Shown here: positions 8,817-54,953 of the stretch, piece by piece
Position numbering within the stretch: position 1 is the stretch's first letter
How the letters are laid out: each line of letters starts with the position of its first letter
Origin: Kiritimatiellia bacterium
Lineage (GTDB): Bacteria; Verrucomicrobiota; Kiritimatiellia; RFP12; UBA3636
Direction of reading: 5' to 3'
Length of the DNA: 64,000 nt
NCBI GenBank assembly: GCA_045589455.1
Contig: JAZNPC010000066.1
Location: 127,227 to 191,226, forward strand
Position numbers and translations under genes: made by a program
The notes under the pieces: model-generated
What the model was told of the DNA's origin: nothing
Databases searched by the model: none
What the model saw: the letters and a program-made list of their open reading frames with translations, nothing else

Positions 8817-8867
8817 AAATTGTCTCGTAAATTTATTGTTTTTAAGTACTTAAAAAAACAAGGTGTC

Positions 8868-9857: not shown

Positions 9858-10044
9858 ATGTAATCCTTTGTTTCTGTATCTGCGGAATATTCTAACATAA
9901 GAAGAAAAAAGTCGCAAGACTTGAAAAAATTCTTCCATAATAGAATAATGTTAATTGATAGTTGTATAAAATATAAGTTTTTTGCTAATAAATGGCGATT
10001 TTAAAGGTAAAAGTGTTTATAATTAAAAAATAATTTTTAAGTGT

Positions 10045-24153: not shown

Positions 24154-27100
24154 ATGAAAAGAGCACAAAATATATTTCTAGCATTTTTTGCTTTATTTCT
24201 GATGGCACAAGAAGCAAATGCTACTGTGTATAGACCAGGTTTCCAACAGTTCAGATATAGCTGTGCTAAGGACAAGGAAGCTGATTTAACAGTTACCTAT
24301 GATTCTATTACAGATGCAAATAAACGTGATATTACAGCCACAACACTCATGGCAAGCATCAATGGCACAGGTAGTGTTGTTAATCCACTTACTGGTAAAA
24401 CTTGGAATTGGTCAGACAATACCACCTTTGGCTATGAATCACAAATTTGGTTGGAGCCAGGTACTTATACCTTCTGGGGACGCTATGATGATGGTGGTGC
24501 AGTTCTTATCAATGGTGATGTGATTTATACACATGGTGCAAAATCAGGTTATAATGAATCTCCAGCTTCAGGAGATTTTGTTGTTACAAAAGCTGGTTGG
24601 TATGATTTCCGTGGCTATGTATGGGACTGGTCTGGTGGTAAGAACCCTATGGGAGAAGCTAAGAGTGCTATCCAAATGAAAAAGGATGGCGGAGCCTGGA
24701 TTATCAATATGGAGGGTGTTCCTGCTCGTTATGCAACAGGTGTAGAATATTTAGAAATCCAAAAAGCTGTTGCTTCTGAAACAGAAGGTTGCTTTGATGT
24801 GACTGTTGCTGCAACATTTCCAAGTGGAACAACGGCTCAGGTTTGGGCATTAGCTACAAATGGTAATGTTGGTCATTTACCTAAAGATAAATGGAGTTCT
24901 TCTTCTGAAGCACAGTCTATAACTAGTGATGGAACAACACAAATTTTAACTTTTACAGTCGATGCTTCTGCTCTCGGAAATCCATATGTTGTTGCATATT
25001 CAGAAAATGTTTATACAGATATTTTGACAGAGGAATCTGCAGCAAATCCAGATTTTAATTTAGAAAAAGCATATTCTTCACTTGTTCCTGTGGCTACCGC
25101 TGCAGCAGGCTATATAATAATTGATGAAGTTAAGTATTTAGATGTTGATATATTTACAAATATTGATAGTTTTGGTGTGGGAGCAACTGGTGTTGAGGGA
25201 ACAATTGAGGTTAGTACTTCAGTAGATTTCTCTAATCCTATAACTGTAGAATTAGGCTCTTTAGCTTTTGGTGCTTCACTACATACTATCTCGGGTTTAA
25301 CAACGAATGTAACCTATAATATTCGCCTTGTGATGGTCAATAGCGAAGGAGCAACAACATATACAGATCCTGTAGAGTTTACAACATTGAATCCTCAACC
25401 TGCGATTATTACTTCTACGCTTTATACCACAGAGTATAATGTGTTTAAACCAACTGTAATACTTGAGTCTTATGGTGCTGGTTCTACCACAGCAACAGTC
25501 AGCTATCAAGTTTCTACAACAGAGGATTTCTCTGATATTGTAATAGAACAAGAAGTTCCAAATGCTATGCTTGGGCAAGGGGTAGAGATTAAAATTAACA
25601 AATTAGATGACGGTTCACCACTTGTTGGAGCAAGTACTTACTACTTCCGCCCAGTTGTTGTTAATGAGTGGGGGCTTGTCACCTATGGTGATACAATTAA
25701 AGCACAATTGGCTGATACTATTATTACCTATAATGGATTTGGGTATAATAAAACCGATGCTGGTTTAGAGCTTGTTGCCTATGTCACATACGTTCTAGAA
25801 GATGCAATCTTTGATGCAACCCTAGAAATCAACAATGTTGTAGTTAAAGAGTGGAATGGTATAAATGCTGCAACTACCTTAGCATATACTATAGAAAATG
25901 ATTCACTAAAATCTCAAAATACTGCAAAACTAACATTTGATATCACAACAAATAATGGCCAAACCGTTGAAGTGCTGGAGGAAGAGTTTATCAAGAATCA
26001 GCAACGTGTTATGGCTTTTAGCTCAATTGCAGAATTGGATAATAATGATGCAAGCTATACAATAGCTAAGATTGGTGATGTGATTAAGATGCCTAAGCTC
26101 ATCGACGATAACGAAAATTATGTTGCTGGTGATACTCGCGTGGCAAGGCTCTTAGAAGATGGTAATTCTATTGAAATTATCGGTCATGGATTCACTAAGA
26201 TTACAAAGCGCATAGTTGATCCTGCCTCTGGAAATATAACGCTAGAGCGTGGTCTTGTGGTTGTTCCTCCAACTCCAGCAGGTGAGGGCAATGTTTATAT
26301 GCTAATCATTCCTCAGGCAGATAGATATTGGGATACAACTCACTGGAAAAACTTAACCAATCCAGAGGCTGGTGGCTATCCTTCTAAGAAGGATGATATC
26401 GCTATGATTTTTATGTATGGCACAAAGAGTATGTTTGTTAATACTGATATTACAGTAGGTCAGATTTGGATTGGTGTAGAAGGAGGAAACTTCTACTTAC
26501 GAGGACAACAAGGCGGCGAAGGAGCTAAAACAGTCACATTTGAGCGTAGCGATAAAGAGATGCCTCTTTTCAGAATTTCTGGTTTAGAGCAGACAGATGG
26601 CGTTGTTCTTCCTTGGGCATTGCCACACTTTTATATTCAACCAAGCTTAAAAACCCCTCTAATATTTGACTGTTCAAATGATTTATTATTTGATGCAGGA
26701 TGTCCTTTTGATCCTTTAAGTAGAGATGATGTAACAGGTAAGTCTCTTCAGAGAGTTTCATTAGAAACAGGATTTATTTTAAATATACCAAAGGGAGCAA
26801 GGGTTGTTTTTGATGGAACAAATGCAGGCAATAGAGATGGTGATACCCAAAGAGGTAATGTAACCTTCCGTTTTTCGAGTAACGCTTTTGTTGGAGAGGG
26901 AACAGTTGATTATAATGGACCAAGTAGTGTGTGCTTTACTCCAGATGCATCAGATTTTAATGGTGTATTTGATTTGACCCACATGAATAAGTACGATTCC
27001 TTTGGAATTGGAGATCGTGGTGGTGGTGTATACATGCTATTCTGGGAGGGCAGTCAACCAGGAGCAAATGCTTCTCAGCGTCTTGAGGGGCATATTGGCT

Positions 27101-28419
27101 TAGGGTCTTCTTCTAATGTTTATGCTTGGAATGATTCCTTTGGTATTATTAACTGTGGATCGGCTCACGGATATGGTTCATATGGCCCAGTGCCTAATCA
27201 CTTTGCCCCTAAAGCATTCTATTCGCGCGGTGGTGGTATAAATATTAATAATCAGAATAATGGAGATTGGGCAGCTAAGGGAATTCTAGATTCTATCTAT
27301 GCTTCTGAGCAACTTGTTCTTGAGGATGGTTTATTGTGCGCAAATTCAGAACCAACAGATGCGGCTAATTATCCAACAAATTCTCTATTATTTGCAGAAG
27401 TAAGCAATCCAGACGGAAAAGGCGTTTTTGCTGTTAATTTCAGGCATATTAGAGAGTCAAGCAACCAATCTACTGTTACTAATGGTGTTTCAAAATATAA
27501 GGGAAGAGTTCAAATTGGAAACTTCCAAGATATAGCAATTGGTGAAGGCTCTTCAGAAAATGCAAAAATTGTCCCTTGGATAGTAAATGCTATTGGTGGT
27601 TCACAATTTTGGTATTTTGCAAAAGCAGACGAGGATGGATTCTTGCTTCCAGCAGGTTATCCTTCAACAGAAAACCTAAGAAATTTCGCTTCAACTGCCA
27701 ATGCATACTGCGTAAATGGAAACTCCTTGAATCTATTGCAAGATAAGACTGTTAATTCTCTAGTTCTAAAGGGGCTTACTGGAGATAGGTCAACATTGGG
27801 TGAGGGTATGACTGCAACAATTACCTCTGGTGGTCTAATCTTTACTTCTGATATTTCTCATATTGATTCAGAAGAGGTTTATAATGCTGGAACACGAGGT
27901 AATCTAGTATTCCCTAATCGAGCATTTATCTTCGCAGGTATAAAGTCAACAACTTCACCATCAGAGATTTGGGCAAATATTTCTGCACCAAAGGGTATGA
28001 CAATTACTTACCCTGGAACATTGTTGCTTGGTGGTGATCAGACTGGTATTGATAAGGAAATACATATTTCCAATAGTAATCTAATTCTTGGTAAGAATAC
28101 AACTCCAGCAGTGATTGATGTGCCAATTTCTATGCACTCTGGTGGTTCTTCATTAACTATTGCTAATGCAGGTTCTTTGTGCAAGCAGGAGATTGTATGT
28201 ACAACAGCAACTCGCCAGTTCCCTAAAATCAATGTTGCCTTTGATGGAACAGAAAATTGCCAAAAGCTAACAATTGATGGCGAAACTCTACCAAGAGGTA
28301 CTTATGGTGCAACAGGCTCAGGAGCTGAATTTATCAACGATAAAATATTTACTGGTGTAGGTATATTGAAGGTCTTGAGCGACGATTTACTACAGCCTAC
28401 AATAATTTTTATTAGGTAA
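24154..28419 (+). CDS. Giant secreted protein (1421 aa) with an N-terminal PA14-like domain and repeated beta-sandwich-like domains.
   Basis: Signal peptide MKRAQNIFLAFFALFLMAQEANA. The PA14-like motif is GTYTFWGRYDDGGAVLINGDVIYTH...AGWYDFRGYVWDWSGG. The body is long and rich in S, T, G and N. C-terminal tail ...LLQPTIIFIR. Confidence 0.85.
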   Translation: MKRAQNIFLAFFALFLMAQEANATVYRPGFQQFRYSCAKDKEADLTVTYDSITDANKRDITATTLMASINGTGSVVNPLTGKTWNWSDNTTFGYESQIWLEPGTYTFWGRYDDGGAVLINGDVIYTHGAKSGYNESPASGDFVVTKAGWYDFRGYVWDWSGGKNPMGEAKSAIQMKKDGGAWIINMEGVPARYATGVEYLEIQKAVASETEGCFDVTVAATFPSGTTAQVWALATNGNVGHLPKDKWSSSSEAQSITSDGTTQILTFTVDASALGNPYVVAYSENVYTDILTEESAANPDFNLEKAYSSLVPVATAAAGYIIIDEVKYLDVDIFTNIDSFGVGATGVEGTIEVSTSVDFSNPITVELGSLAFGASLHTISGLTTNVTYNIRLVMVNSEGATTYTDPVEFTTLNPQPAIITSTLYTTEYNVFKPTVILESYGAGSTTATVSYQVSTTEDFSDIVIEQEVPNAMLGQGVEIKINKLDDGSPLVGASTYYFRPVVVNEWGLVTYGDTIKAQLADTIITYNGFGYNKTDAGLELVAYVTYVLEDAIFDATLEINNVVVKEWNGINAATTLAYTIENDSLKSQNTAKLTFDITTNNGQTVEVLEEEFIKNQQRVMAFSSIAELDNNDASYTIAKIGDVIKMPKLIDDNENYVAGDTRVARLLEDGNSIEIIGHGFTKITKRIVDPASGNITLERGLVVVPPTPAGEGNVYMLIIPQADRYWDTTHWKNLTNPEAGGYPSKKDDIAMIFMYGTKSMFVNTDITVGQIWIGVEGGNFYLRGQQGGEGAKTVTFERSDKEMPLFRISGLEQTDGVVLPWALPHFYIQPSLKTPLIFDCSNDLLFDAGCPFDPLSRDDVTGKSLQRVSLETGFILNIPKGARVVFDGTNAGNRDGDTQRGNVTFRFSSNAFVGEGTVDYNGPSSVCFTPDASDFNGVFDLTHMNKYDSFGIGDRGGGVYMLFWEGSQPGANASQRLEGHIGLGSSSNVYAWNDSFGIINCGSAHGYGSYGPVPNHFAPKAFYSRGGGININNQNNGDWAAKGILDSIYASEQLVLEDGLLCANSEPTDAANYPTNSLLFAEVSNPDGKGVFAVNFRHIRESSNQSTVTNGVSKYKGRVQIGNFQDIAIGEGSSENAKIVPWIVNAIGGSQFWYFAKADEDGFLLPAGYPSTENLRNFASTANAYCVNGNSLNLLQDKTVNSLVLKGLTGDRSTLGEGMTATITSGGLIFTSDISHIDSEEVYNAGTRGNLVFPNRAFIFAGIKSTTSPSEIWANISAPKGMTITYPGTLLLGGDQTGIDKEIHISNSNLILGKNTTPAVIDVPISMHSGGSSLTIANAGSLCKQEIVCTTATRQFPKINVAFDGTENCQKLTIDGETLPRGTYGATGSGAEFINDKIFTGVGILKVLSDDLLQPTIIFIR

Positions 28420-34837: not shown

Positions 34838-36061
34838 TTATATTAATGCAACCGGGATAATATAATTTTGTTTATCAATTGCTGATAGAGATTCTGCCAT
34901 GCAAATGATTGCCCCATTCCCCCTTGGGATTGTTGTTTTATCCAATACTTTAAATTGTCTTGTTAATTCTGTGCCTGGGTTCGAAGTACGCTTAATTTCA
35001 ATTGGATGTAATTCTCCGTCGCTTTCCATTACTAAGTCAATTTCGTTATTATTTGTATCTCTATAGTACCACAAAAGACAGTCTTTTGCATTGTTATGAT
35101 ATGTTTTAATAATTTCAGAAATTACAAAATTTTCAAGTATAGCTCCGTTCATTGCTCCATTAGCAAGGATTTCTGGAGAAGAATATCTAGTGAGATATGC
35201 TACAAGACCTGTATCGAAAAAATAAAGCTTTGGAAATTTAATAGTCCTTTTCAATAAATTGTTTGAGTAGGAACGTAAGAAAAATATGATATCCGATTTT
35301 TCTAGAATCTTAAACCAACGCTTTGCTGTGTCAACGGATATGCCTACATCTTTTGCAATGTCTGAAAAATTAAGAATTTGACCCACTCGACATGCAGCAG
35401 AACGAATGAAGTCTGTGAATTGTAGTACATCTGTAATATTCGCAAAATCTCTAATATCTCGTTCAATGTATGTTTGTAAATAACTACTGTAAAATAAATC
35501 TCTATCAGTATATTTTCCGCTTATATGACCTGGCATAGAACCATTCCAAATACGTGTATAAATTTCTTTAGTATCTGCTTTTTTATTTGATTTGTTTCGG
35601 TTCTTTAGGTTTTCTAGGTTAATGGCAAAAGGTTCGGTTGGGCCCTTTCCAAAAATTTCATGTTGTGAAAGTGTGGGTAGGTGAATTACCGCAATTCGTC
35701 CAGCAAGTGATTCCTGTGCAAGCTCCATTAGTTTGAATGGCTGAGAACCAGTGAGCCAAAATGATGATGGTGCAGCACCATTATCTATTGCCATTTTTAT
35801 ATATGAAAAGAGTTCGGGTGCATACTGAACCTCGTCAATTAGAATTGGCAATGAATGCATTTGAAGAAATAGTGCTGGATCGTTAGCAGCAAGATGTCTT
35901 TCTTGCAAATTATCTAGAGAAACAACAGTCCTATTCTTTGACATTAGTTGTTTAAGCAATGTTGTTTTACCAACTTGACGGGCACCTGTGATAAGAATAC
36001 AAGCATATTCTTTAGAAATAGATTGTATTTTTTTTTCTATATCTCGAGTAATGTATCTCAT
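34838..36061 (-). CDS. AAA_14/DUF4143-family ATP-binding protein (second paralogue).
   Basis: Walker A ITGARQVGKTTLLKQL, ILIDEVQYAPEL and a C-terminal DUF4143-like region. ATG at 36061 is preceded by AAGGAG. Confidence 0.85.
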   Translation of the reverse strand: MRYITRDIEKKIQSISKEYACILITGARQVGKTTLLKQLMSKNRTVVSLDNLQERHLAANDPALFLQMHSLPILIDEVQYAPELFSYIKMAIDNGAAPSSFWLTGSQPFKLMELAQESLAGRIAVIHLPTLSQHEIFGKGPTEPFAINLENLKNRNKSNKKADTKEIYTRIWNGSMPGHISGKYTDRDLFYSSYLQTYIERDIRDFANITDVLQFTDFIRSAACRVGQILNFSDIAKDVGISVDTAKRWFKILEKSDIIFFLRSYSNNLLKRTIKFPKLYFFDTGLVAYLTRYSSPEILANGAMNGAILENFVISEIIKTYHNNAKDCLLWYYRDTNNNEIDLVMESDGELHPIEIKRTSNPGTELTRQFKVLDKTTIPRGNGAIICMAESLSAIDKQNYIIPVALI

Positions 36062-36627
36062 AAAATCTCCTTTTTTTGATAAAACTATATATAAAACGTT
36101 TTAAAATTTCAAGTAAAATTTACGATGCAATCGTAAATTTTACTAAAATTGTGTGCGCTTATTCCTTAATTCAGTAGTTAGATTTTAGTGCGCGTTAAAG
36201 CCACAATGAGCATTGCGAGACCTTAAAATTGCAATAGTAATTTTTCTCGCGCTAGACCAAATGATGGAGGAGCAGATGTTTTGCATTGCAAAACATAGGT
36301 GAGAAGTAAGAAGTAAAAGGTAAGAGATTCGGTATGTGCGTGCGCGGGCGGCTAACGCATGCGCACCGCTCTCGCCTACGGGAAGATTGGAAGCTGGGGA
36401 GGATGGGAGGTTTGTCTGATGGGTGGTGTGGTTGTGGCGCTAGCGCGTACATTTGTGTCGTGTGCGCTGTAAAATGTGCGCCAGCCAAGCTGCACAAAAA
36501 TGTAATTATTTCTATCATTATAGGTTTAAATGGTTTGCATAAATTATATCGGTATTTTGTTTGACTGATTTTGTTAAATAGTTGTAAAATATCAATAAAT
36601 TTAAATAAAGTTATTTTGGAGATTCTT

Positions 36628-37476
36628 ATGAAAAAATATTTTTCGTTGACGATATTGTTGTTTGCTTGTCTTGCTGTAACATCTTATGCAGATAGTGAAG
36701 GTAAGGTGAATATAGAAATTATTTATGGTGTTGAATGGGAATATACATCCTGTGATAATGGTGTAGAGATTTTAGGTGCAAATGCAGAGGGAGATGTTAA
36801 AATACCTTCTAAATTAGGAAATCTTCCTGTAACATCCATCGGCGAAGAAGCGTTTTCTGATTGTGGTAGTTTAACCAGTATTGTAATTCCAGATAGTGTA
36901 ACATCCATCGGCGACGATGCGTTTTCTGGCTGTTATAGTTTAACCAGCATTGTAATTCCATCAAGTGTAACATCCATCGGCGACGGTGCGTTTTCTTACT
37001 GTGGTAGTTTAACCAGCATAGAAGTTGCAAAAGGCAATCGAAATTATGTTTCAGTAGATAATGTATTGTTCTCTAAAGACATGAAAAAGATTATTTGTTG
37101 CTCTAAGAACAAAGCATCATATTCTATTCCTGAAGGTGTAACATCCATCGGCGACCATGCGTTTTCTGTCTGTGATAGTTTAACCAGCATTGTAATTCCA
37201 GATAGTGTAACAACCTTCGGCGAAGAAGCGTTTTCTGGCTGTTATCGTTTAACCAGCATTGTAATTCCATCAAGTGTAACATCCATCGGCGAAGAAGCGT
37301 TTTATGGCTGTCGGAGTTTAACCAGCATTGTAATTCCAGATAGTGTAACATCCATCGGCGATAGGGCGTTTTCTGGCTGTGAGAGTTTAACCAGCATAAT
37401 ACTACCAAGAAAATTTTCAGAAGACCGAGAGCGACTTGCTAATGAAAATTATGGAGAAATCATACCGAACGACTAA
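36628..37476 (+). CDS. Small BspA-type LRR (LRR_5) surface protein.
   Basis: Signal peptide MKKYFSLTILLFACLAVTSYA, then ~8 repeats of IP(D/S)SVTSIG(D/E)xAFSGCxSLTSIVIP. The start at 36628 is preceded by TTGGAG. Confidence 0.8.
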   Translation: MKKYFSLTILLFACLAVTSYADSEGKVNIEIIYGVEWEYTSCDNGVEILGANAEGDVKIPSKLGNLPVTSIGEEAFSDCGSLTSIVIPDSVTSIGDDAFSGCYSLTSIVIPSSVTSIGDGAFSYCGSLTSIEVAKGNRNYVSVDNVLFSKDMKKIICCSKNKASYSIPEGVTSIGDHAFSVCDSLTSIVIPDSVTTFGEEAFSGCYRLTSIVIPSSVTSIGEEAFYGCRSLTSIVIPDSVTSIGDRAFSGCESLTSIILPRKFSEDRERLANENYGEIIPND

Positions 37477-37745: not shown

Positions 37746-38600
37746 TTACTGTGGTAGCTTTTCGCAGATGCTGTTGAAGGCATCGCGGATTGGAGATGGT
37801 GTGTCTTCGCCTGCAATTGGATTACCAGAATCACCACCCATGCATACGATTGGATCAATTGGAATCTGACCCAATAGAAGTGTGTTAAATTCCATTGCTA
37901 GCTTCTTACCTGCGCCCTCAGCAAAGATGTTTGTTAGTTCACCACACTTTGGACAAATGAAGCCACTCATATTCTCAACAATACCTAGGATTGGGAATTC
38001 TAGCTTTAAGCAGAAGTTGAGTGATTTACGTACATCATTTGCCGCAACCTCCTGTGGAGTTGTAACAATGATTGCGCCGGTTGGATCAGGAATGCGCTGA
38101 CAAATGCCTAGAGGCTCGTCACCTGTTCCTGGAGGGCAGTCGATAAACAAATAATCTAGCTCACCCCAAACAACATCAGAAATGAATTGCTGGATTACGC
38201 CATTCTTTGCAGGACCACGCAAGATGATTGCATCATCTGGATTAGGTAGGAAATATCCAATAGAAACTACCTTGATTCCGTGTGTCTCGTGAGGAATTAG
38301 CTTGCCATTCTCAGAATAAACATCTGCACAAACATTACCCAACATTTTTGGAATACTTGGTCCATTGATATCAACATCTAGTAGGCCAACCTTTTTACCT
38401 TGCTTTGCAAGTGCAATTGCCAGATTTACTGCAACAGTGCTTTTACCTACGCCACCTTTGCCAGACATAATAGCAACCTTGTGCTTAACATTTGCTAAGC
38501 AGCTGCGGATTTTCTTCTCTGAATCATCTTGGCAATTTCCTGAACCCTTGCAATCGCCACAAGCATCTGTCCTATTTGGACAAGTATTTTCCTCTGACAT
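37746..38600 (-). CDS. apbC: Mrp/NBP35/ApbC-family Fe-S cluster carrier ATPase.
   Basis: Deviant Walker A SGKGGVGKST, the C-terminal CPxC-type cysteines (FICPKCG) and an N-terminal Cys-rich extension. Confidence 0.85.
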   Translation of the reverse strand: MSEENTCPNRTDACGDCKGSGNCQDDSEKKIRSCLANVKHKVAIMSGKGGVGKSTVAVNLAIALAKQGKKVGLLDVDINGPSIPKMLGNVCADVYSENGKLIPHETHGIKVVSIGYFLPNPDDAIILRGPAKNGVIQQFISDVVWGELDYLFIDCPPGTGDEPLGICQRIPDPTGAIIVTTPQEVAANDVRKSLNFCLKLEFPILGIVENMSGFICPKCGELTNIFAEGAGKKLAMEFNTLLLGQIPIDPIVCMGGDSGNPIAGEDTPSPIRDAFNSICEKLPQ

Positions 38601-38630: not shown

Positions 38631-40367
38631 TTAAACTTTAATTAAATTTGTTGAAATTGTTTTTTGTGTTTTTGCTACAAACAAAGCTTCACTATTCTTT
38701 ACAAGAGTTGCTTCATTATTGGCAATTTTAATTTCTAGCTGCGCATCAGCATCGCGTGCTTTCAAAATGGTTGCAAGCATGATTGCTTGCTCAAGCCCAT
38801 CGCCACACTGATAGTTCCAAACTTCGTCTGGTTGCGAAAGTCTAAATGCTTCCTCGTAAATTGATTCGTTAGTAATCGATGAAGCAATTGCTTCGCATAG
38901 CGCATTCTCGTCAGTAAATTGCTTGGTTTCTTCAATGCAGACAGGATTGCGCTCAAGCGCAGCCTTCATAAATGGCTCTAGCTCTGTATTGCTTAAATCG
39001 CGCCAAGCATAAAGAGCCATCTTGCAGTATTCGTTCTCTTCTTTGAGCTCATAGACGCGCTTAATAATTTCCTCGCGCTCCATTCCAGGTGTAATATCTA
39101 GTGGTGTGCCTTGGCTAACAAATTGTTTGTCGCTATGCTTAGGAAGGCGAGGAGTTGTTTTGCAGAAAGCAATCAGATGCTGAAGTGTTTCCTTAATATC
39201 TATGCACTTGGTGCAGAGGCGTTGCTCAAGTCGAGCAATATCCTCTTGTGAATTTATATCAACAGGATATTGGCGAAGATAGCTTTCCAAATCATCAAGA
39301 ACAATGCATTGGCTACAAATAGCGGAATGCATTTCCTCCTGGTCAATTGTTGCTAGCAATTGAGGGCGTGTATTATCAGTAACCTTAAATGGTGTATCTC
39401 GTTCATAAGCGAAGGCTCTTGATAGAGGTAGATAATGGAGATGCCCATTGATTACATATTTTAATACAAAGCAATTTTGTGCATCAGGATATTGGCGAAG
39501 GAAGTTACCAAGTATCTCAGGTGTGAGGCTTGTGGCAAGGTAATCAGTAAGCTTTGTTGAGAAGCTCTTAATTGCATCCTTTGAAATTGTGGCAGTGTCA
39601 TAAATTGTATGAATCCAACCAGAGCAGTGTGTGACAAAGGTAATGTTTTCATGTTCAATAGCACGACGTGCCTGAGCGGAAAGCTCTGTTCCATTGAACC
39701 ACATGTTCTTTGTAACAATGCGGCGATTGTTTGTAATTATGCCTTCTCCTAAATCAATAAAGTTTTGTGAGTGAAGTGGAGTTGCCATCAAATATATCTG
39801 CTCAAGAGGAATGTCTAGCACAACAAATAGGGCAGCAGCATAAAGAGCAGCAAGAGAAACACATTCTCCGGCACCGGTGCTATAGCCTGGCTTTCTTGAG
39901 AATGCGGTCATGGCCTCAAGGGTTTCTGTCTTCCAATATGGGATTACATTTGTATTATATTTATCTAGACCAAAGTGTCTACGAATGTCAATATCAAAAT
40001 AATACTTGTCTCCCTCATAGCCAAACAATGCATTTGATTTTGAAAGAGTATCTCTATCAATAAAGCTATTGAAGCGTGCTAGCTCTTTCTCTTGGGTTGT
40101 AAGTCCCCATGTCTCAAGATCAAGATTAAAGGTATAGTGATCCATTATGTATTGCTTGAGACGATTTATTCGAGCCACAGTGCCACGCTTATTAAACTCA
40201 GTAAACCAAGGGTCTTCACGCCAGCGCCAAAGGATTGGCGACATAATATTTGCCAACACAAGGCTAAATATCAGATCTGGAAAAATAAACATTTCCATAT
40301 CTGATAGGGAAATTGCGGAGGATTTCTTTTCAAGCTCGCGCTGTTGCTCAGGAGTTATTTCTTTCAT
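38631..40367 (-). CDS. Hypothetical 578-aa protein, translationally coupled to the upstream GspE-like gene; possible transglutaminase-like Cys/His core.
   Basis: ATG at 40367 overlaps the TAA of the GspE-like gene (TAATG). Motifs GAGECVSLAALYAAAL ... PLHSQNFID resemble a Cys-His-Asp papain/transglutaminase-like core (weak). No other recognisable domain. Confidence 0.55.
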   Translation of the reverse strand: MKEITPEQQRELEKKSSAISLSDMEMFIFPDLIFSLVLANIMSPILWRWREDPWFTEFNKRGTVARINRLKQYIMDHYTFNLDLETWGLTTQEKELARFNSFIDRDTLSKSNALFGYEGDKYYFDIDIRRHFGLDKYNTNVIPYWKTETLEAMTAFSRKPGYSTGAGECVSLAALYAAALFVVLDIPLEQIYLMATPLHSQNFIDLGEGIITNNRRIVTKNMWFNGTELSAQARRAIEHENITFVTHCSGWIHTIYDTATISKDAIKSFSTKLTDYLATSLTPEILGNFLRQYPDAQNCFVLKYVINGHLHYLPLSRAFAYERDTPFKVTDNTRPQLLATIDQEEMHSAICSQCIVLDDLESYLRQYPVDINSQEDIARLEQRLCTKCIDIKETLQHLIAFCKTTPRLPKHSDKQFVSQGTPLDITPGMEREEIIKRVYELKEENEYCKMALYAWRDLSNTELEPFMKAALERNPVCIEETKQFTDENALCEAIASSITNESIYEEAFRLSQPDEVWNYQCGDGLEQAIMLATILKARDADAQLEIKIANNEATLVKNSEALFVAKTQKTISTNLIKV

Positions 40368-41956
40368 TAAAATTGACCGATAGATGCGATTAGCTCTGCT
40401 GGGGTTGTGATGTGGTCGCGTAGCTTTTGTGCTGCATCGTCCTTCATTGCACACCAGGTTTGCTCGTTTGCTACAATTTCACGAAGCTCATTTGCGGAAA
40501 GTTTGCCAGAGTGAATTGCTGCTGCCACATTTGGAGTGCATGGCATAAATTCAAATATACCGATTCGACCGATAAAGCCTTCGCGACACTTTGGGCAGCC
40601 CTTTGCGACGGCAATTGTTTTTGCGCCTGCGGCTTCTGCGATTGCTGCCTCGTGTGGTGGCAGGGTGGAGATATCTGCAACCTCGTGGCAGTGTGGGCAA
40701 ACGCAGCGTACTAGGCGCTGAGCAAGTACACCGCGCAAGCACGATGCAAGCAAGTATGGTTCAATGCCCATATCTGTTAAGCGCATAACTGCAGCAGGTG
40801 CATCATTTGTGTGAAGTGTTGTTAGCACAAGGTGACCAGTTAATGATGAGCGAACAGCAATCTCTGCGGTCTCAGCATCACGAGTTTCACCAACGAGAAT
40901 TACATCTGGGTCTTGACGCAAAATATGGCGTAAGCCAGAAGCAAAGGTTAGTCCAATTTTTGGCTTAACTTGAATTTGAGCGATATTTGGAATGCGATAT
41001 TCAATTGGGTCTTCAATCGTAAGAATATTTCTACGAACTGAATCCATTGTGCCAAGTGCAGAATAAAGAGTTGTTGTTTTACCAGAGCCAGTAGGACCAG
41101 AAACAACGATTATACCATTTGGCTGATTCAATGCATTTGAGAAGCCCTCCAGCGCATTCTCTGGCATACCCAAATGATTTAGAGGGAGAAGAGAGCGGTC
41201 ACGGTTAAGTAGACGCAATACCACGCGCTCACCAGCTGCAACAGGAATTGTTGAAACACGAATATCTACAATGCGATTTGCCACACGAACCTGAGTCATG
41301 CCATCCTGAGGAAGTCTGCGCTCAGTAATATCCATGCTAGACATAACCTTGATGCGTGAAACAATCTGGAGAACTTGATTAGGCTGTGAGCTTTGGTAAT
41401 CATAGAGCTTACCATCTAAGCGATAGCGAATACGCACAGCACCATTTTCTTCTGGCTCAAGATGTATATCTGAAGCATCTCTACGGATAGCCTCAAGAAT
41501 GATGTTGTTGATAAATTGTGTGATAGGCTGATTATCGGAATCAGAAAGCAAATCAGAGAAATGAGTTTGTGCTGCTGGTGTAGTTACTGTTGCTTTTGGT
41601 GCTGTTTGTGGCAGAGTGTCGAGCGTATCCTTTGAGGTGGCACCTGCGCGAGGAATGTCTGCTGCAGCACCGAGCTCTAGCTTTTCTAAAATTCCAAGAA
41701 TGCACTCCTTTGGAGCGAATGCAGGTTCCAACTCTTTACCCAATAATAGTCCTGCTTGTTGAATAACAGAAATGCTTTCTAGCTTTGACATTGCTAGATA
41801 TAGCTTTTCTTCAATAAGAACCGGTATAACACAAAAGTCCTTTGCCCATGGTAGTGGCAAAAGAGAAAGTAGCTCTTTAGGTAGCTGGTCCACGGTAATC
41901 TCAGGAAGATATGGTAGCTCATATTCTTCAGCTAGCTTTTCTAATGTGCTATTCAT
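40367..41956 (-). CDS. GspE/PilB-family secretion ATPase (type II secretion / type IV pilus assembly ATPase family).
   Basis: N-terminal T2SSE_N-like domain, Walker A GPTGSGKTT, Asp and His boxes, and the tetracysteine zinc motif CPHC...CPKC. Confidence 0.88.
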   Translation of the reverse strand: MNSTLEKLAEEYELPYLPEITVDQLPKELLSLLPLPWAKDFCVIPVLIEEKLYLAMSKLESISVIQQAGLLLGKELEPAFAPKECILGILEKLELGAAADIPRAGATSKDTLDTLPQTAPKATVTTPAAQTHFSDLLSDSDNQPITQFINNIILEAIRRDASDIHLEPEENGAVRIRYRLDGKLYDYQSSQPNQVLQIVSRIKVMSSMDITERRLPQDGMTQVRVANRIVDIRVSTIPVAAGERVVLRLLNRDRSLLPLNHLGMPENALEGFSNALNQPNGIIVVSGPTGSGKTTTLYSALGTMDSVRRNILTIEDPIEYRIPNIAQIQVKPKIGLTFASGLRHILRQDPDVILVGETRDAETAEIAVRSSLTGHLVLTTLHTNDAPAAVMRLTDMGIEPYLLASCLRGVLAQRLVRCVCPHCHEVADISTLPPHEAAIAEAAGAKTIAVAKGCPKCREGFIGRIGIFEFMPCTPNVAAAIHSGKLSANELREIVANEQTWCAMKDDAAQKLRDHITTPAELIASIGQF

Positions 41957-41972: not shown

Positions 41973-42467
41973 TTAATTATTCTTGTTTTTGTGCAAAGCA
42001 GATGTGATTAGCTCCGGAGGAAGTGAAATGGCATTTTCGTGATGTGTAATTTCAAAAGTGTCTGCGTTTGGTGATGTCTTAGTTACCTCAATGATGTCAA
42101 AGCGTATGGCATGTGGCTTAGAAAAATTTTTCTTCATATAGCCTTTTGCTGCTCTCGTAAGAGCCTTGCGCTTACGTTTATCAACCGCAGCCTTACCTCC
42201 ACCAAATAAGTTCGAGGAGCGTGTTTTTACCTCAACAAATACAAGCTGCTCAACCATTGAGTTTCTAAAATCAATTGCGATTAAATCTAGTTCATCAATC
42301 CCTACGTGTACGCGCTCACCAATTATTTTGAACCCTTTTGTTTTTAAATGCTCTGCTGCAAGTTTTTCTCCTCTAATACCAAGAGCATCTTTATCAAGGA
42401 TTGCTTGGGTATTAGCCGTGGATTGCTTTCTTGGGAAAAGCTTTACAAGGAGTTCTCTAATTGTCAT
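41973..42467 (-). CDS. YraN-family (UPF0102) endonuclease-like protein.
   Basis: GEKLAAEHLKTKGFKIIGERVHVGIDELDLIAID...LVFVEVKTRSS...RFDIIEV matches the YraN/UPF0102 pattern. Confidence 0.7.
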   Translation of the reverse strand: MTIRELLVKLFPRKQSTANTQAILDKDALGIRGEKLAAEHLKTKGFKIIGERVHVGIDELDLIAIDFRNSMVEQLVFVEVKTRSSNLFGGGKAAVDKRKRKALTRAAKGYMKKNFSKPHAIRFDIIEVTKTSPNADTFEITHHENAISLPPELITSALHKNKNN

Positions 42468-42470
42468 TCT

Positions 42471-43844
42471 CTATGTGTTTAATCCGTATTTCTTAATTAA
42501 ACGCTGGAGATATGTTCTTTCAATATCTGCTTCGCGGGCTGATTTAGAAACATTACCATTGTTGCGTGCTAAAAGCTCTTTGATATATTGGCGTTCAAAA
42601 TCGTCGATTAGGCGATTCTTCTCATCCTTAAATGGCTTGGTGGTGTCAACATTATTTGAAACAGAATTTTCGTCGTCGTTTGAACCGTTGTTTGATTGCT
42701 TTAATAAAGTGCCACCTTGTTGGCATTGAAGGATATCAACAGGCTTTTGAATGTGGTAATAAGCGCGATCAATAAGGTTGCGGAATTCACGAATATTACC
42801 TGGCCAATCGTAACGCATCAATGCATTCATTGCATTGTCAAAGTCTTGAATTTCATCACGTGCCTTAGCATTATGCAAGCGCTTCATAAAGGTCTCAGCG
42901 AGAAGAGGGATGTCCTCTTTGTGTTCTCTAAGAGGAGGTAGCTCTATATTTACAACAGATAGGCGATAGTATAAATCTTCACGGAAATTGCCTTCGCTAA
43001 TTTCCTTTTTGATATTTCTATTTGTTGCACAAATTATTCTTACATCAATTTTGCGAACCTCATTAGAGCCAACACGTTTGATTTCACGTTTTTCTAGTAC
43101 ACGCAATAGCTTTGGCTGAAGCTCTTGAGGAAGCTCTCCAATTTCGTCAAGAAATACCGTGCCACCATCAGCGCTTTCAAAGGCACCAGGGCGGTCGCTT
43201 GTTGCGCCAGTAAATGCTCCCTTAATGTGGCCAAATAATTCACTCTCCACGATATCACGAGAAATTGATGTGCAGTCAATAACAACAAATGGTTTCTCAG
43301 AACGCTTGCTATGTTTGTGAATTTCCTCTGCAAGAATTTCCTTACCTGTGCCTGTTTCACCAGTAAGCATAATTGTTGCATCAGTTGGTGCATAGCTTTC
43401 TGCTAAATAGAAAATGCGACGCATTGGGTCACTAGCACCAATAGCATTACCAAAGTGATCGTTTTGGCTTAATGGAATATCTGCAAATTCTAGAGAAGGA
43501 GAAAATAGTAGGCGAGTATTGCCTAGGCGAAGCTCTGAGCCTGGGGTGAGATATGCATGCATGATGCGTAGCCCACAAAGGAATGAGCCATTTGTGCTAT
43601 TAGTATCTTCAATAGAAAAGGTGTGACCATCAGAGTTGATGATGCAGTGCTTGCGTGAAACTGCTGTGTCTTTTAGCTGCAAATCACAGCTGTCACTAGA
43701 GCCAATTGAAAAAGGAGTGTTTTCAATAATAATTTCTTTTCCTTGCTGTGGACCAGAAAGGATTAGTATTGATGCTTTTTTCTTAATGAGAGGACGCTCT
43801 TCATTTTTTGCTGGTACAACAAAGGTTTGATGTGCTTCTTTCAT
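42471..43844 (-). CDS. Sigma-54-dependent transcriptional activator with an N-terminal FHA domain.
   Basis: FHA motifs ([21 protein letters not shown]...NGSF), the AAA+ sigma-54-interaction domain ([21 protein letters not shown]) and a C-terminal Fis-type HTH. ATG at 43844; the ORF-track start at 43868 is a TTG. Confidence 0.88.
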
Positions 43845-43885
43845 AAGATATCCATTGATGAAATTCAAATTTGCGCAATCAAAAA

Positions 43886-45052
43886 TTAGGCATTAACAAA
43901 AGGTGAAATTTTGCGTAGCTTATCTACGATTCCAGGCATTACTTCTATAACCTGATTGATATCATCCTCTGTGTTGTAGCGGCTTAGGCTAAAACGTAGG
44001 GATCCATGAACTGCGGTGAAAGGAACACCCATTGCACGAATAACATGTGATGGCTCAAGAGAACCAGATGAGCATGCAGAACCAGATGAAGCACAAATTC
44101 CTGCATCACTTAGGTGATAAAGAAGTGCTTCTCCTTCGATAAATTCAAAGCTGATATTAAGTGTATTTGGAAGGCGCTTTGTTAGAGAGCCATTGAGGCG
44201 TGCATCTGGAAGCTTTAGTAGCTCCTCTTGAAGCTTATCGCGCAAACGAGCAATACGTTCAATTTCATCTGAGGCAAGATCTGCCTTTGCGAGCTCAGCT
44301 GCTTTACCTAGACCAACAATGTAAGGAACATTTTCTGTGCCTGCGCGGCGGCCATTCTCTTGGTGTCCTCCAAGTAGGAAAGGATTAATATGTGTACCCT
44401 TACGTACATATAGCGCGCCAATGCCCTTAGGTGCATGTAGCTTGTGGCCAGAAAGTGAAAGCATATCAGCAGGAATCTCTGCCATATTTACTTCAGAGAG
44501 CTTACCCATCGCTTGGACAGCATCTGTGTGGAAATAAGCTCCTGCTGCCTTTGCAAGCTCAGCACACTCCTTGATTGGGAAGATAACGCCAGTTTCATTG
44601 TTTGCCCACATCATGGTAACAAGCTTTTTGCCAGGAGCAGATAGTGCTGCCTTATACTCGTCCATATCAAGTGTGCCATCGCCATGCACGCCAATCTCAA
44701 AAACCTTGTAGCCCATTTCCTTTAGCTTGCGGCAAGGCTGAAGTACAGCAGGGTGCTCAACGCGAGTGGTAATGATTGTTCCGCCAGGGCCAATTGAATT
44801 TGCTGCGCCGAAAATTGCTGTGTTGTCAGATTCGCTACCGCAGCTTGTGAAAATAATTTCTGATGGGTCTGCGTGTACAAGGTCAGCTAGCTTCTCACGT
44901 GCTGCATCAACCTTCTTTTGTACAACGCCACCAAAGGCATGCATACTAGAAGGATTGCCATAATACTCCTTAAAGAATGGTAGCATTTCCTCTAGCACCT
45001 CAGGTGCCACCTGAGTTGTTGCATTGTTGTCTAAATAAGCAAGTCTGCTCAT
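43886..45052 (-). CDS. nifS: Cysteine desulfurase (NifS/IscS family).
   Basis: YLDNNATT, the PLP-binding SLSGHKLHAPKG and the active-site SSGSACSS. Confidence 0.9.
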   Translation of the reverse strand: MSRLAYLDNNATTQVAPEVLEEMLPFFKEYYGNPSSMHAFGGVVQKKVDAAREKLADLVHADPSEIIFTSCGSESDNTAIFGAANSIGPGGTIITTRVEHPAVLQPCRKLKEMGYKVFEIGVHGDGTLDMDEYKAALSAPGKKLVTMMWANNETGVIFPIKECAELAKAAGAYFHTDAVQAMGKLSEVNMAEIPADMLSLSGHKLHAPKGIGALYVRKGTHINPFLLGGHQENGRRAGTENVPYIVGLGKAAELAKADLASDEIERIARLRDKLQEELLKLPDARLNGSLTKRLPNTLNISFEFIEGEALLYHLSDAGICASSGSACSSGSLEPSHVIRAMGVPFTAVHGSLRFSLSRYNTEDDINQVIEVMPGIVDKLRKISPFVNA

Positions 45053-45054
45053 TT

Positions 45055-45903
45055 TTATGCCTCGCCTTCCTCTACAACAGTAATTTCAGGAGTTACAAAT
45101 TCCTTTAGCTTTGCTTCAACAAGAAGCTGCTTTGTAATGTGAGCAGAACGGCAGCCTGCGCACATGCCACGGAATGCAATTACTACTTCATTGCCACGAA
45201 CATCGACTAGCTCAATATCACCACCATCGCGCTGTAATAGTGGGCGAACTTCTGTATCGATTGTTTGCTCAACAAGCTTAATCTTTTGTAGCTGAGTCAT
45301 AGCGCGTGGCTTTGCTTCTTCCTTTGGCTCTGGAGCAGTGTGAGTAACAGAGTTTAGAACCTCTTGAATGTCTGCCTTACATTTGCCACATGCGCCACCA
45401 GCTTTGCAGTAGTTTGTGATTTGCTCTACTGTGGTTAGGTGATTCTCTGTTGCTAGGCGCACGATTTCAGATTTATGAATATCAAAGCATTGGCAGATTA
45501 CAGGGTCCTCACCAACAGAGCGCATAGAGGTTTCACCAGTCTTGTAATTGTGAATTGCTGCCTCAAGAGCTTCACGACCCATAACGGAGCAGTGCATCTT
45601 TTCTTCAGGAAGTCCACCAAGAAATTCTGCGATGTCTTGGTTTGTTACATTCTGTGCTTCCTCAAGAGTCATGCCCTTAATCATTTCTGTTAGAGCAGAT
45701 GAGGACGCAATTGCAGATGCGCAGCCAAAGGTTTGGAACTTAACATCGGCGATTCTTCCATTTTCGTCGAGCTTAAACATAAGAGTAAGTGCGTCGCCGC
45801 AAGCGAGTGCACCAACCTGGCCAATGCCATCTGGGTTTTCGATTTTTCCTACATTGCGTGGGTTATGAAAATGATCTAAAACTTTATCTGTATAATTCCA
45901 CAT
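45055..45903 (-). CDS. nifU: NifU-type Fe-S cluster assembly scaffold (full three-domain NifU).
   Basis: N-terminal IscU-like domain (GALACGD...FGCASA), a central CxxC ferredoxin-like domain (GGACGKC) and a C-terminal Nfu domain (CAGCRSA). ATG at 45903 is preceded by GAGG; the longer ORF starts with TTG. Confidence 0.85.
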   Translation of the reverse strand: MWNYTDKVLDHFHNPRNVGKIENPDGIGQVGALACGDALTLMFKLDENGRIADVKFQTFGCASAIASSSALTEMIKGMTLEEAQNVTNQDIAEFLGGLPEEKMHCSVMGREALEAAIHNYKTGETSMRSVGEDPVICQCFDIHKSEIVRLATENHLTTVEQITNYCKAGGACGKCKADIQEVLNSVTHTAPEPKEEAKPRAMTQLQKIKLVEQTIDTEVRPLLQRDGGDIELVDVRGNEVVIAFRGMCAGCRSAHITKQLLVEAKLKEFVTPEITVVEEGEA

Positions 45904-45999
45904 AATTAGCCTCATAAAAAAGCTTAAAAACAATTCGTTTACTTAAGTTATAATTATAACATAATTATACGGAGGAAAGCAAATAACAAAATGCGCAAG

Positions 46000-46680: not shown

Positions 46681-46929
46681 GGAATAATGCTAGGAGGATT
46701 TTATAGGAGAGTTAATGGGTTCATCCCGCATTATCTTTCAACAATTTTTAAAAAAAACAATTGCTAACTGTTTGCTCTTGTTTTGCCTCTCTTATTGGGT
46801 TCTTGTATAAAAAAATAGAAAAAAATGACAAATTTCTAAGATTAAATCTTCAAAAATTAAAAAAAACATTATATAATTATTGATAAATAAAGTGTTATTC
46901 TATGTTTTGTTATAAAATTGGGGTCCAAT

Positions 46930-49053
46930 ATGACTTCTGAAATTAAAAAATTTGTAAAAATGCTTATTGCTGAAGCTAATGAGCGAGAAGAAAAGCTCAC
47001 CCTTAAAGCTTGGGGTAAAGAGCGTACATTTGTTGCTTTTGATTTGTTTGATGATACTTTTATTTTTGAGGAAGGAATTTGGGATAATCTTGAAAATAAA
47101 GATTCTGTAATTCTTGTACCAAAATCAGCATTTTCACCTCCAAATCCAGAAGGGAAAAAGCGCCGTACCTTTGGTAATATCATGACAATTAGCTCTGGAA
47201 ACCATGCTGTTACGTCTATTCCATTACTTTCTGGCCAATTTTGGGATATTCCTGGAGTGCCAGAGGAGCAACGCTCAGATACGCTTGTAAAACGTCTTGT
47301 ATGTGCAAATGTTGTAGGAAATACAATTGAAATATCTCAGCGTGATGTTGCCACACCTGATGTTGTAGAAATGGATGATTGGTTGCAAGCACTTGGTTGC
47401 CCTATGCGTAGTGTTGTTTTAATTGACCGAATTGATTCAACACTTCAATACTACAACAAGCGAGGACAAGAATGGCGCATCAAACCGCTTGCGTGGACAT
47501 TTTCTGAGATGAATGCTGCTATACGCTCTTCAATTAGCCATATGCATTCTTGCATTAAATATTATCACAATGTAAAAGGTGTTCATTTTTTAACATATAA
47601 AAATTTCTGCACATGGGGTGAGCAAATAGAGGAAAATTACTCTGAATTTTTAAGTGGTTTGACAGAGCTTGCTGGAACAAGTGAATTAACCCAAGTGCCT
47701 AATTTGCTATTAAGCAAATATCGTACTCATCACGAGGTTGAGCTATTTGGTCTTCCTGATGGTGTGGCAGAGCGTATAATTATTCCTGAGCTTCTTGAGC
47801 TATACAAAGAGGTTAATGAGGAAAAATATCAGCCTCGTGATGTACGAGAGCGCTTCAATGCAATTGAAAGTACATTTAGAGCATCTTTGTTAGAGCCAGG
47901 TTTGTTGGAAGAAGATAGTCCGGATTTTATACAAAATCTTTATCGTAATATTACTGGGCAGATTTATTTTGACGAGACATATGGCTTAGTATCTAGTGCT
48001 TTTGATGACATGCGTACTGCACTTCCTGGTGCAACCTATATGCTTGGTAATCGCTTTATTCATGATGGTGCAGATGCTCGTACAGTTGCAATACTTGACG
48101 TTTTAGAGCGTGAAATTAGTCATGGTGATAGAATTGAACATGTAAATATTTACGAGATTCGCTCAAACAGTGAGAAAATTCACCTCGGTGAAGGTAAGTC
48201 CCGTGAAATCGTGTTCAAGACAATGTGGAACCCAAAGGATACACGTATTATTGAAAAGCGTTTGGCACACAGCTCAACTGGTTATGGTGCATATACACTT
48301 GCTCGTGTTTCTGCATTTCGTAGCCTTGGTATTTCATATGGTCGCCATCGTTTGATTGCCCGTAATGATGGTGCAGCTGGTGATATTCACTACTTTACAC
48401 GTGCACGTTATCCTGGAATACCTTTTAACAAGATTCCAAAAATGCTTTTCTGTAATCGTGATTTAAATACAGGTAAGTATGATTTATCAAAGGAATCTGC
48501 AGATATTGTTCGCGCATTGATTCGACTTCTTGGCGGATCTGCCGCAGAGGCAATGATTCTTAAGAAATATCGTAAAGGACAGGAAAATCACTATTGCGAT
48601 AGCAAGGAAATTATCGAATTTGGCTATGACGTACGCTACGGAAAAGAGATGCCAATTGGGCTACATCTTTGCTCAATCCGCGGAACAATGGGTTGGGAGG
48701 ATACTAGCCTGACTGAAGATAATCTTCTTAAAATGTTTGACTTTTTTATGAGTGAATTTGTTAAAACTGTAAAAAAATATGCAGAAGATCATCCTGTGCT
48801 TTCTCGTTATGATATAGCAGATGCTTTCTTCGAGGGATTTTCTGCAAAGACTCGCGAGGTGTATTGGAATTACATGAATAGGCGTGATCAATTCGATAAC
48901 TATTCTCCACGAGTTTATGGCGATTATCGTTTTACCGAAAAATGGTCATTTGTGCTTTGGAGCCTTCAAGAGCAGCGCAAGCGTCTAGATTATCTTTATG
49001 ATTTATTCAATGAGAAATTGGCTCGTGAATATCCAGAAGAGCTAGAAGGCTAA
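46930..49053 (+). CDS. Hypothetical protein (~707 aa), no recognisable domain.
   Basis: Long, clean ORF with normal amino-acid composition. ATG at 46930; the track start at 46918 is a TTG. Confidence 0.6.
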   Translation: MTSEIKKFVKMLIAEANEREEKLTLKAWGKERTFVAFDLFDDTFIFEEGIWDNLENKDSVILVPKSAFSPPNPEGKKRRTFGNIMTISSGNHAVTSIPLLSGQFWDIPGVPEEQRSDTLVKRLVCANVVGNTIEISQRDVATPDVVEMDDWLQALGCPMRSVVLIDRIDSTLQYYNKRGQEWRIKPLAWTFSEMNAAIRSSISHMHSCIKYYHNVKGVHFLTYKNFCTWGEQIEENYSEFLSGLTELAGTSELTQVPNLLLSKYRTHHEVELFGLPDGVAERIIIPELLELYKEVNEEKYQPRDVRERFNAIESTFRASLLEPGLLEEDSPDFIQNLYRNITGQIYFDETYGLVSSAFDDMRTALPGATYMLGNRFIHDGADARTVAILDVLEREISHGDRIEHVNIYEIRSNSEKIHLGEGKSREIVFKTMWNPKDTRIIEKRLAHSSTGYGAYTLARVSAFRSLGISYGRHRLIARNDGAAGDIHYFTRARYPGIPFNKIPKMLFCNRDLNTGKYDLSKESADIVRALIRLLGGSAAEAMILKKYRKGQENHYCDSKEIIEFGYDVRYGKEMPIGLHLCSIRGTMGWEDTSLTEDNLLKMFDFFMSEFVKTVKKYAEDHPVLSRYDIADAFFEGFSAKTREVYWNYMNRRDQFDNYSPRVYGDYRFTEKWSFVLWSLQEQRKRLDYLYDLFNEKLAREYPEELEG

Positions 49054-54420: not shown

Positions 54421-54953
54421 AGCATGGCTTGCGGTAAGCGAAATCCGGATAAATACCGATTGGCTTTCCGGGGTCTCATAAAGAGTGCGTCATGTGCGTG
54501 GCGTAAGTGTCTTTATCCATGCAAATTGCGTTATACAATTTTACCATATTATTAGGGTTTAAATCATTGATTTAGAGCGAAAAAAATCATATAATATGGG
54601 CATATCTTTTAAATAGAATGATTTGTTTTTCTTTTTTAGAGATATATTACATAGGTATGCAATGAAAGTTACATACTGTTGAACTAATCGCTTTTGAATG
54701 TAAAAGATTCAAAAGGAATAGTGTTAGTACGCAAGCTTGCGTATTTAGCTTTGATTGAAAATCGCCAATTTCCCATCTAACTAAGCTGAATATGTAAGGT
54801 GCGCTACGTGGTATTTTCCCGCGTGGCGTGTCTTCTTTTCATGTTTAGTTAGAGGCGTTTGGCGATGCCCCAATCAGAATATGAAAATTATGGCACGCCA
54901 CGTCTTTTTTGTGCAAGACGCTTCGTGTCCAATAAATGCACAAAAGGTATTAT

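Follow-up and report, generated by a model that had tools for sequence, protein, structure and literature searches.

We analysed a 64-kb stretch (64,000 nucleotides; hereafter the window) of contig JAZNPC010000066.1 from a Kiritimatiellia bacterium, in which the gene for a type II secretion ATPase, gspE, is joined head to tail with the gene for a conserved 578-amino-acid (578-aa) protein that carries no family annotation. The ATPase, of the GspE/PilB type, is encoded on the minus strand by an open reading frame (ORF) of 529 aa (40367-41956) and was recognized by the Pfam family T2SSE (2e-126). In the ORF list, the next minus-strand frame was counted from its first possible GTG (38631-40454, 607 aa). 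Direct reading of the junction, CAATTTTAATGAAAGAA, revealed that the TAA stop of the ATPase gene (40369-40367) and an ATG (40367-40365) have one A in common, forming a TAATG stop/start overlap at 40365-40369 on the minus strand. The product from this ATG has 578 aa (38631-40367, minus strand), and this start was favoured over the GTG because, in an alignment of 33 homologues, the proteins begin within about 10 residues of the ATG and none of them reaches the GTG.

The pair lies in a co-oriented string of seven minus-strand genes separated by gaps of -1 to 30 nt. Pfam searches identified, in order of reading, nifU (45055-45933; NifU_N, Fer2_BFD and NifU), nifS (43886-45052; Aminotran_5), a gene for an FHA-sigma54 enhancer-binding protein (42471-43868; FHA, Sigma54_activat and HTH_8), yraN (UPF0102), the upstream neighbour of gspE (41973-42467; PF02021, 7.6e-23), gspE itself, the 578-aa gene, and, as its downstream neighbour, mrp/apbC, encoding a NUBPL-type Fe-S carrier ATPase (37746-38600; PF10609, 2.4e-98). 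Both members of the pair would be co-transcribed with nifU, nifS, the sigma54 activator gene, yraN and mrp in the genus of the window, and the TAATG overlap would in addition couple their translation in the window species. Counts of sigma-70 promoters and terminators between 37000 and 46800 were not above those of shuffled sequences, and operon boundaries were not assignable; the sigma-54 promoter pattern matched 47 times in the window, with 44.5 matches expected. The ATPase is an orphan at this locus: Pfam scans of all window ORFs with 150 aa or more detected no T2SSF, secretin or N_methyl domain, a tblastn search of the 64 kb found no second T2SSE gene, and the prepilin motif search returned only one out-of-frame chance match in the window. 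An earlier sequence-only reading of this locus had described the gene order, the TAATG overlap and an ATPase without platform, secretin or pilin genes nearby, and these descriptions were confirmed.

The motifs of the ATPase, several of which had also been pointed out in that reading, are complete. The N-terminal domain (Pfam MshEN/T2SSE_N, PF05157, 5e-8) spans residues 12-96 (41669-41923, minus strand), and the ATPase core, delimited by Pfam and motif reading, spans residues 140-522 (40391-41539, minus strand), with the T2SSE domain (PF00437) scoring 421.9 bits versus a gathering cut-off of 24.9. The core contains an Asp box (DIRVS, residue 231), a Walker A motif (GPTGSGKT, residue 287; 41075-41098, minus strand), a Walker B motif (ILVGETRD, residue 353), a His box (TGHLVLTTLH, residue 373) and a tetracysteine zinc motif (CPHC at 420 and CPKC at 454; 40586-40699, minus strand). 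The best NCBIfam model was GspE (TIGR02533, 508.4 bits), followed by PilB (458.9 bits), with the GspE score lying under the equivalog cut-off of 630.25 bits. The best solved relative was EpsE of V. cholerae (PDB 1p9r, 355 bits). With EpsE/GspE of this organism (PDB 1p9r/4ksr) the window protein has in common the T2SSE core, the Walker A and B motifs, the Asp and His boxes, the tetracysteine zinc motif and an N1E-type N-terminal domain, whereas, in contrast to canonical gspE genes, no gspF, gspD, gspL or pseudopilin gene adjoins it within the window. The MshEN family includes domains that bind cyclic di-GMP (c-di-GMP) through the motif RLGxx(L/V/I)(L/V/I)xxG. Despite the MshEN match, direct reading of the window GspE N-terminus (MNSTLEKLAEEYELPYLPEITVDQLPKELL...) found no RLG..G motif; its segment LPLPWAKDFCVIPV aligns with LPVDWARANCLLPV of P0385, a canonical GspE whose gene sits between secretin and T2SSF genes in the gspD-gspE-gspF cluster of locus L178.

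In a distance tree, the window GspE grouped with four other Kiritimatiellia proteins (P0282, P0283, P0285 and P0289; 56-59% identity), and the sister clade of this group (50-51% identity) included P0385 (51%). The remaining T2SSE paralogues, namely a second copy in locus L091 and the MshE-like ATPases described below, were just 34-38% identical to the window protein. Since the window ATPase clusters with the GspE of the L178 cluster, we assign it on sequence grounds to the canonical secretion GspE orthogroup and not to a special paralogue, in disagreement with the "GspE paralogue" of the sequence-only reading. In the compact gspD-gspE-gspF clusters of Planctomycetes-Verrucomicrobia-Chlamydiae (PVC) bacteria, such as L178, the same orthogroup accompanies its secretin and platform genes, whereas across the subclade of the window (the window, L004, L094, L096 and L177) gspE is detached from gspD and gspF and sits among unrelated genes. 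No GspL-type partner was found beside any of the GspE orthologues examined. In L177, an 878-aa protein with no Pfam match (7368-10004) overlaps the start of the GspE-orthologue gene by 4 bp and occupies the place that gspD has in L178; possibly it is a secretin that has diverged strongly, or else another partner. The gspE gene is under strong purifying selection, with a ratio of nonsynonymous to synonymous substitution rates (dN/dS) of 0.05-0.08 and dS up to 1.6. A type II secretion system was reported for the phylum in the genome paper of Kiritimatiella glycovorans (PMC5148204). In such a system the GspE hexamer, on the cytoplasmic side of the inner membrane, would drive pseudopilus assembly by ATP hydrolysis, and in the subclade of the window, to judge from relatives, gspD and gspF would be encoded elsewhere in the genome.

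The 578-aa protein had been singled out by the sequence-only reading as belonging to no known family, and indeed no match was obtained in Pfam or NCBIfam (E ≤ 0.01), PADLOC or PHROGs; a known defence or phage module was ruled out by the last two scans. A profile of the family searched against PDB sequences gave nothing below E 0.2 (noise only), and our literature search found no description of the family or of its pairing with GspE. A word-indexed search retrieved 6023 clusters (90% identity) at E ≤ 1e-3, and the best 120 of these consisted entirely of proteins of 562-612 aa, 53-98% identical to the query, named "hypothetical protein" and originating from Kiritimatiellia, Lentisphaerae and Verrucomicrobiota. 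Pattern scans detected at least 596 relatives in GTDB species genomes, the species being mostly Kiritimatiellia, Lentisphaerota and Verrucomicrobiota, and at least 587 in metagenome contigs. At 50% clustering the family has only about a dozen full-length representatives, and its most distant relatives form a paralogue family of about 495 aa (P0196, P0232). Identity is about 55% across classes, and dN/dS of the gene was 0.07-0.11 in all comparisons. The protein is among the better-conserved ones seen in this study, yet it lacks a family annotation, and its extreme conservation suggests that its substrate is conserved too.

Structure prediction with AlphaFold2 yielded a confident model of the 578-aa protein (predicted local distance difference test score 90.1, predicted template modelling score 0.90) with two domains of transglutaminase fold. 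The first transglutaminase/papain-like core (about residues 140-260; 39588-39950, minus strand) contains Cys169 (39861-39863) as the first residue of helix 169-182, His199 (39771-39773) just before strand 200-204, and Asn214 (39726-39728). As judged from the model, this Cys-helix/His-strand layout is typical of the transglutaminase/papain-like superfamily. The second transglutaminase-like domain (about residues 500-578; 38634-38870, minus strand) lacks this cysteine, and when residues 262-578 (38634-39584) were modelled alone the same fold was obtained, with G522-D523-G524 in the place of the cysteine. In the model, two transglutaminase-like domains thus stand in tandem, the first apparently active and the second degenerate.

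These predictions agree with the earlier suspicion of a papain/transglutaminase-like protein and amend one detail of it, the proposed Cys...His...Asp arrangement. Both motifs on which it was based, GAGECVSLAALYAAAL and PLHSQNFID, are present, and Cys169 and His199 are invariant in the 33 homologues, but D205, the Asp of "FID", is not conserved. Cys169, His199, Asn214 and Arg216 show no variation down to the paralogues (27-28% identity), and P513-D514-E515, located ahead of the position of the missing cysteine in the second domain, is invariant family-wide, including these distant paralogues. Asn214 and D514/E515 are invariant candidates for a third catalytic residue, Asn214 or Asp514 being possible. 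The first domain, with its Cys169-His199-(Asn214) centre, would most likely act as a thiol hydrolase or as an acyl/amidotransferase through a thioester intermediate, with protease, amidase or transamidase as candidate activities, and the second, cysteine-less domain probably binds the substrate.

By reading, no signal peptide was found in the 578-aa protein, and its sole strongly hydrophobic stretch (residues 166-188) was rejected as a membrane helix, since in the model, a globular fold of high confidence, it makes up the helix of the catalytic core. On these two grounds we infer a cytoplasmic, soluble protein. The enzyme would be of a housekeeping type. In fold and predicted mode of action, the modelled protein resembles bacterial transglutaminase-like cysteine proteases, and it lies outside all curated families; a Foldseek search of the model against PDB gave no match below E 0.26. 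LapG (PDB 4fgo), a protein of 181 residues, is described as periplasmic and calcium-bound, whereas the 578-aa protein has two transglutaminase-like domains, shows no signal peptide by reading and gave no sequence-level match. The putative protease BDI_1141 of Parabacteroides distasonis (PDB 3kd4, function unknown) and eukaryotic transglutaminase-like proteins are about 10-13% identical to the 578-aa protein, from which they differ in that its C-terminal module carries G522-D523-G524 and no cysteine.

We compared the locus across the genus of the window, in which the 578-aa proteins are 81-98% identical. Genomes of the window species (L088/L089), L093 and L091/L092, the most basal member, all have gspE between yraN and the 578-aa gene. 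The TAATG overlap recurs in L088/L089 and L093 and is not kept genus-wide, L091 having an 18-nt spacer. In L090, whose 578-aa protein shares 97% identity with its counterpart in the gspE-bearing L093, gspE is reduced to an in-frame remnant of 18 codons between yraN and the 578-aa gene (7905-7961; ATGAATAGCATATTAGAAAAGCTAGCAGAACTAATTGCATCTATCGGTCAATTTTAA, translated as MNSILEKLAELIASIGQF*), in which the first and last nine or so codons of gspE are joined in frame. This scar has the appearance of a clean deletion, internal to the gene, at a GCAGA(A/G) microhomology. In L008, gspE is likewise absent, and the yraN stop runs straight into the old ...AATTTTTAATG junction, so that this deletion differs from that of L090. 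Given its presence in the most basal member and the deletion scars in L090 and L008, gspE is best regarded from these sequences as ancestral in the genus and as having been deleted at least twice, and its recent insertion in the species of the window was rejected on the same evidence. The 578-aa gene stays intact after the loss of gspE and remains under the same purifying selection, with dN/dS of 0.08-0.11 in the gspE-less genomes (L090, L008) versus 0.07-0.10 in the gspE-bearing ones. Among the matches listed, the nearest genomic relative of the window is L008, a Kiritimatiellae metagenome-assembled genome from yak rectum. In L088/L089 the gene caller merged the FHA-sigma54 activator and yraN into one product of 623 aa.

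Outside the genus, scans of GTDB and metagenomes supplied 160 loci with the 578-aa gene, whose flanks had a median length of about 5 kb per side. A T2SSE gene lay within 6 kb of the 578-aa gene in 8 of the 160 loci, which belong to two lineages. Only one of these, L013, has a GspE orthologue, 3.7 kb upstream on the opposite strand; in the other seven, all from one high-GC lineage, a different, MshE-like ATPase is encoded divergently upstream at 0.15-2.7 kb. No adjacent gspE was present in the first four distant contexts of the 578-aa gene that we examined. Conversely, no 578-aa gene lies closer than 10 kb to the GspE orthologues of L177 and L178, and no fusion proteins were found among the 150 best representatives of the family. 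When the flanking ORFs were clustered all against all, every neighbour family was limited to 12 or fewer of the 160 loci, and T2SSE (8 loci) was among the ten most recurrent ones. By eye, the commonest neighbours encode OmpA-like, LptF/G-like, permease, GlmM-like and Lnt-like proteins, T2SSE ATPases and glycosyltransferases.

In the high-GC lineage (L055, L057, L082, L148, L151, L162 and L163), the MshE-like ATPase, with a true RLGDILV..G motif (the c-di-GMP-type motif reads LRLGDILVEQGV in L055, L148 and L163), is followed by a COQ7-like protein (173-204 aa; 183 in L163) and a B12-binding radical SAM enzyme; this group is divergent from the 578-aa gene and has no adjoining pilus or secretion genes. 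In one further lineage (L066, L067, L069, L132, L144, L147, L165, L052 and their neighbours), the gene for a protein of about 540 aa that by eye resembles apolipoprotein N-acyltransferase (Lnt) runs into the start of the 578-aa gene, and genes for OmpA/thrombospondin-repeat and LptF/G-like proteins lie downstream. The gene content suggests an envelope-biogenesis flavour for some of these contexts. Sulfur/Fe-S neighbours turn up sporadically in unrelated lineages: in L174 (2862-5025), genes for NifS (45%) and a NifU-like protein are found directly downstream of the 578-aa gene, and in L001 (7865-9936) genes for a rhodanese/lactamase_B protein, TusA and DsrE_2 are found directly upstream.

Altogether, the data favour, with a probability of about 60%, the view that two genes with separate functions, for an ordinary displaced GspE and a new transglutaminase-fold thiol enzyme, stand side by side in an operon particular to one lineage. 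GspE and the 578-aa protein would act independently of each other and, their genes adjoining in only a few lineages, probably do not form a fixed two-part machine. The arrangement of the window belongs to one group of gut Kiritimatiellae. The sequence-only reading had gone further, proposing a dedicated partner of GspE and a non-canonical ATPase-driven system. The former is at odds with the 8 of 160 loci and with the two deletions of gspE beside an intact 578-aa gene, and the latter is unsupported as stated; the conserved linkage to GspE in other genomes on which that reading had staked the pairing was mostly not found.

Several observations weigh against a mere juxtaposition, all of them reflecting the recurrence of the T2SSE adjacency in different architectures. 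The order gspE, 578-aa gene, mrp is found both in the genus of the window and in L094/L095 (60% identical), where a 12-nt gap separates the first two genes. In L096 (57% identity) the order is reversed, with gspE following the 578-aa gene with a 4-bp overlap, and this pair sits behind the same glycosyltransferase gene that precedes the 578-aa gene in the L009-L012/L014 lineage. In L004, gspE is divergent at 3.6 kb, and to these cases the divergent MshE-like ATPases of the high-GC lineage have to be added. When all loci collected were grouped at 70% identity, 5 of 58 clusters had a T2SSE neighbour. The association thus looks somewhat enriched over the roughly 1% of loci expected by chance for a family present in a few copies per genome, this expectation being a rough assumption and not a measured value.

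These cases would be explained if the 578-aa protein served in the cytoplasm as an accessory to ATPases of the type II secretion/type IV pilus type in PVC bacteria, being a functional partner that would process or modify the ATPase, a pseudopilin or another secretion component, or would regulate ATPase assembly, with ATPase genes settling repeatedly beside its gene. We consider this possible but unlikely. In its favour are the at least four distinct adjacency architectures involving two T2SSE subfamilies, the occurrence of start/stop overlaps in either gene order (a TAATG in the window, 4 bp in L096), the rank of T2SSE among the recurrent neighbours, the retention of the N-terminal partner-binding domain of GspE, and the lack of a GspL-type partner beside the GspE orthologues examined. 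However, more than 90% of the loci show no linkage, gspE was deleted twice next to a 578-aa gene that is still constrained, the canonical gspD-gspE-gspF cluster of L178 has no 578-aa gene nearby, and fusions were absent from the 150 best representatives. Moreover, the four architectures with GspE orthologues fall in one subclade and may derive from a single ancestral adjacency, and three of the five clusters with a T2SSE neighbour were reached by a biased route, the cross-matching of the two homologue lists. A narrower version, in which the type II secretion/type IV filament ATPases of Kiritimatiellota, Lentisphaerota and relatives have the 578-aa protein as an unrecognised accessory enzyme of the cytoplasm, for instance as a protease of the thiol type or a transamidase with the ATPase, pseudopilins or another secretion component as its target, would likewise explain the adjacency of gspE or MshE-like ATPase genes in at least four arrangements, and is doubtful.

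It is improbable, too, that gspE is a redundant copy in the course of being lost here, its pairing with the 578-aa gene having no biological meaning. Two independent deletions in one genus and a second T2SSE gene 6 kb downstream of mrp in L091 speak for such a decay, but wherever gspE is present it is intact, with all its motifs and the strong purifying selection described above, and the second T2SSE gene of L091 encodes a different paralogue, 38% identical. Least probable of all is that the 578-aa protein works with the Fe-S/sulfur-trafficking genes (NifU, NifS, Mrp), carrying a persulfide or thioester on Cys169, with gspE a passenger of the operon: the core nifU-nifS-activator-yraN-(gspE)-578-aa-mrp survives the deletion of gspE in the genus of the window, mrp also follows the 578-aa gene in L094/L095, and the sulfur-related genes of L174 and L001 directly flank it, but this reading ranks low because such neighbours are sporadic, amounting to just 3-4 cases, with no adjoining NifS, NifU or Mrp by tblastn in the other 155 or so loci, because neighbours with envelope functions (Lnt-like, LptF/G-like, OmpA, GlmM, glycosyltransferase) occur no less often, and because we know of no sulfur-relay members of the transglutaminase fold.

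The favoured reading, two separately functioning genes brought together in one lineage, amounts to a new family of known fold beside a known ATPase, between which a loose functional link is possible. Kiritimatiellota and Lentisphaerota are abundant polysaccharide degraders of guts, rumens and sediments, and type II secretion is thought to export their glycoside hydrolases and sulfatases (PMC5148204). If the weak but recurrent link to secretion ATPases is true, the 578-aa protein would be a new cytoplasmic component of the minimal secretion systems of PVC bacteria, which are poorly understood; if it is not real, the locus cautions against defining a system by a tight start/stop overlap found in a single genome. 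In either case, the tandem transglutaminase fold and the Cys-His centre provide a testable starting point for a large family of "hypothetical proteins".

The rest of the window contains further genes of a different character. Two large ORFs, at 24154-28419 (1421 aa) and 46918-49053 (711 aa), had no Pfam match at E ≤ 1e-4. A 356-aa ORF with an IS200-like Y1 transposase domain and two AAA_14/DUF4143 ATPase genes (10585-11655; 20017-21249; 34838-36061) hint at mobile or variable DNA. Five BspA-type leucine-rich-repeat proteins are encoded at 16282-19677, 21526-22791, 22852-24111, 36571-37476 and 54936-59591, one of them with 1551 aa and 12 LRR_5 stretches. Large numbers of repeat surface proteins are associated with host-associated anaerobes.

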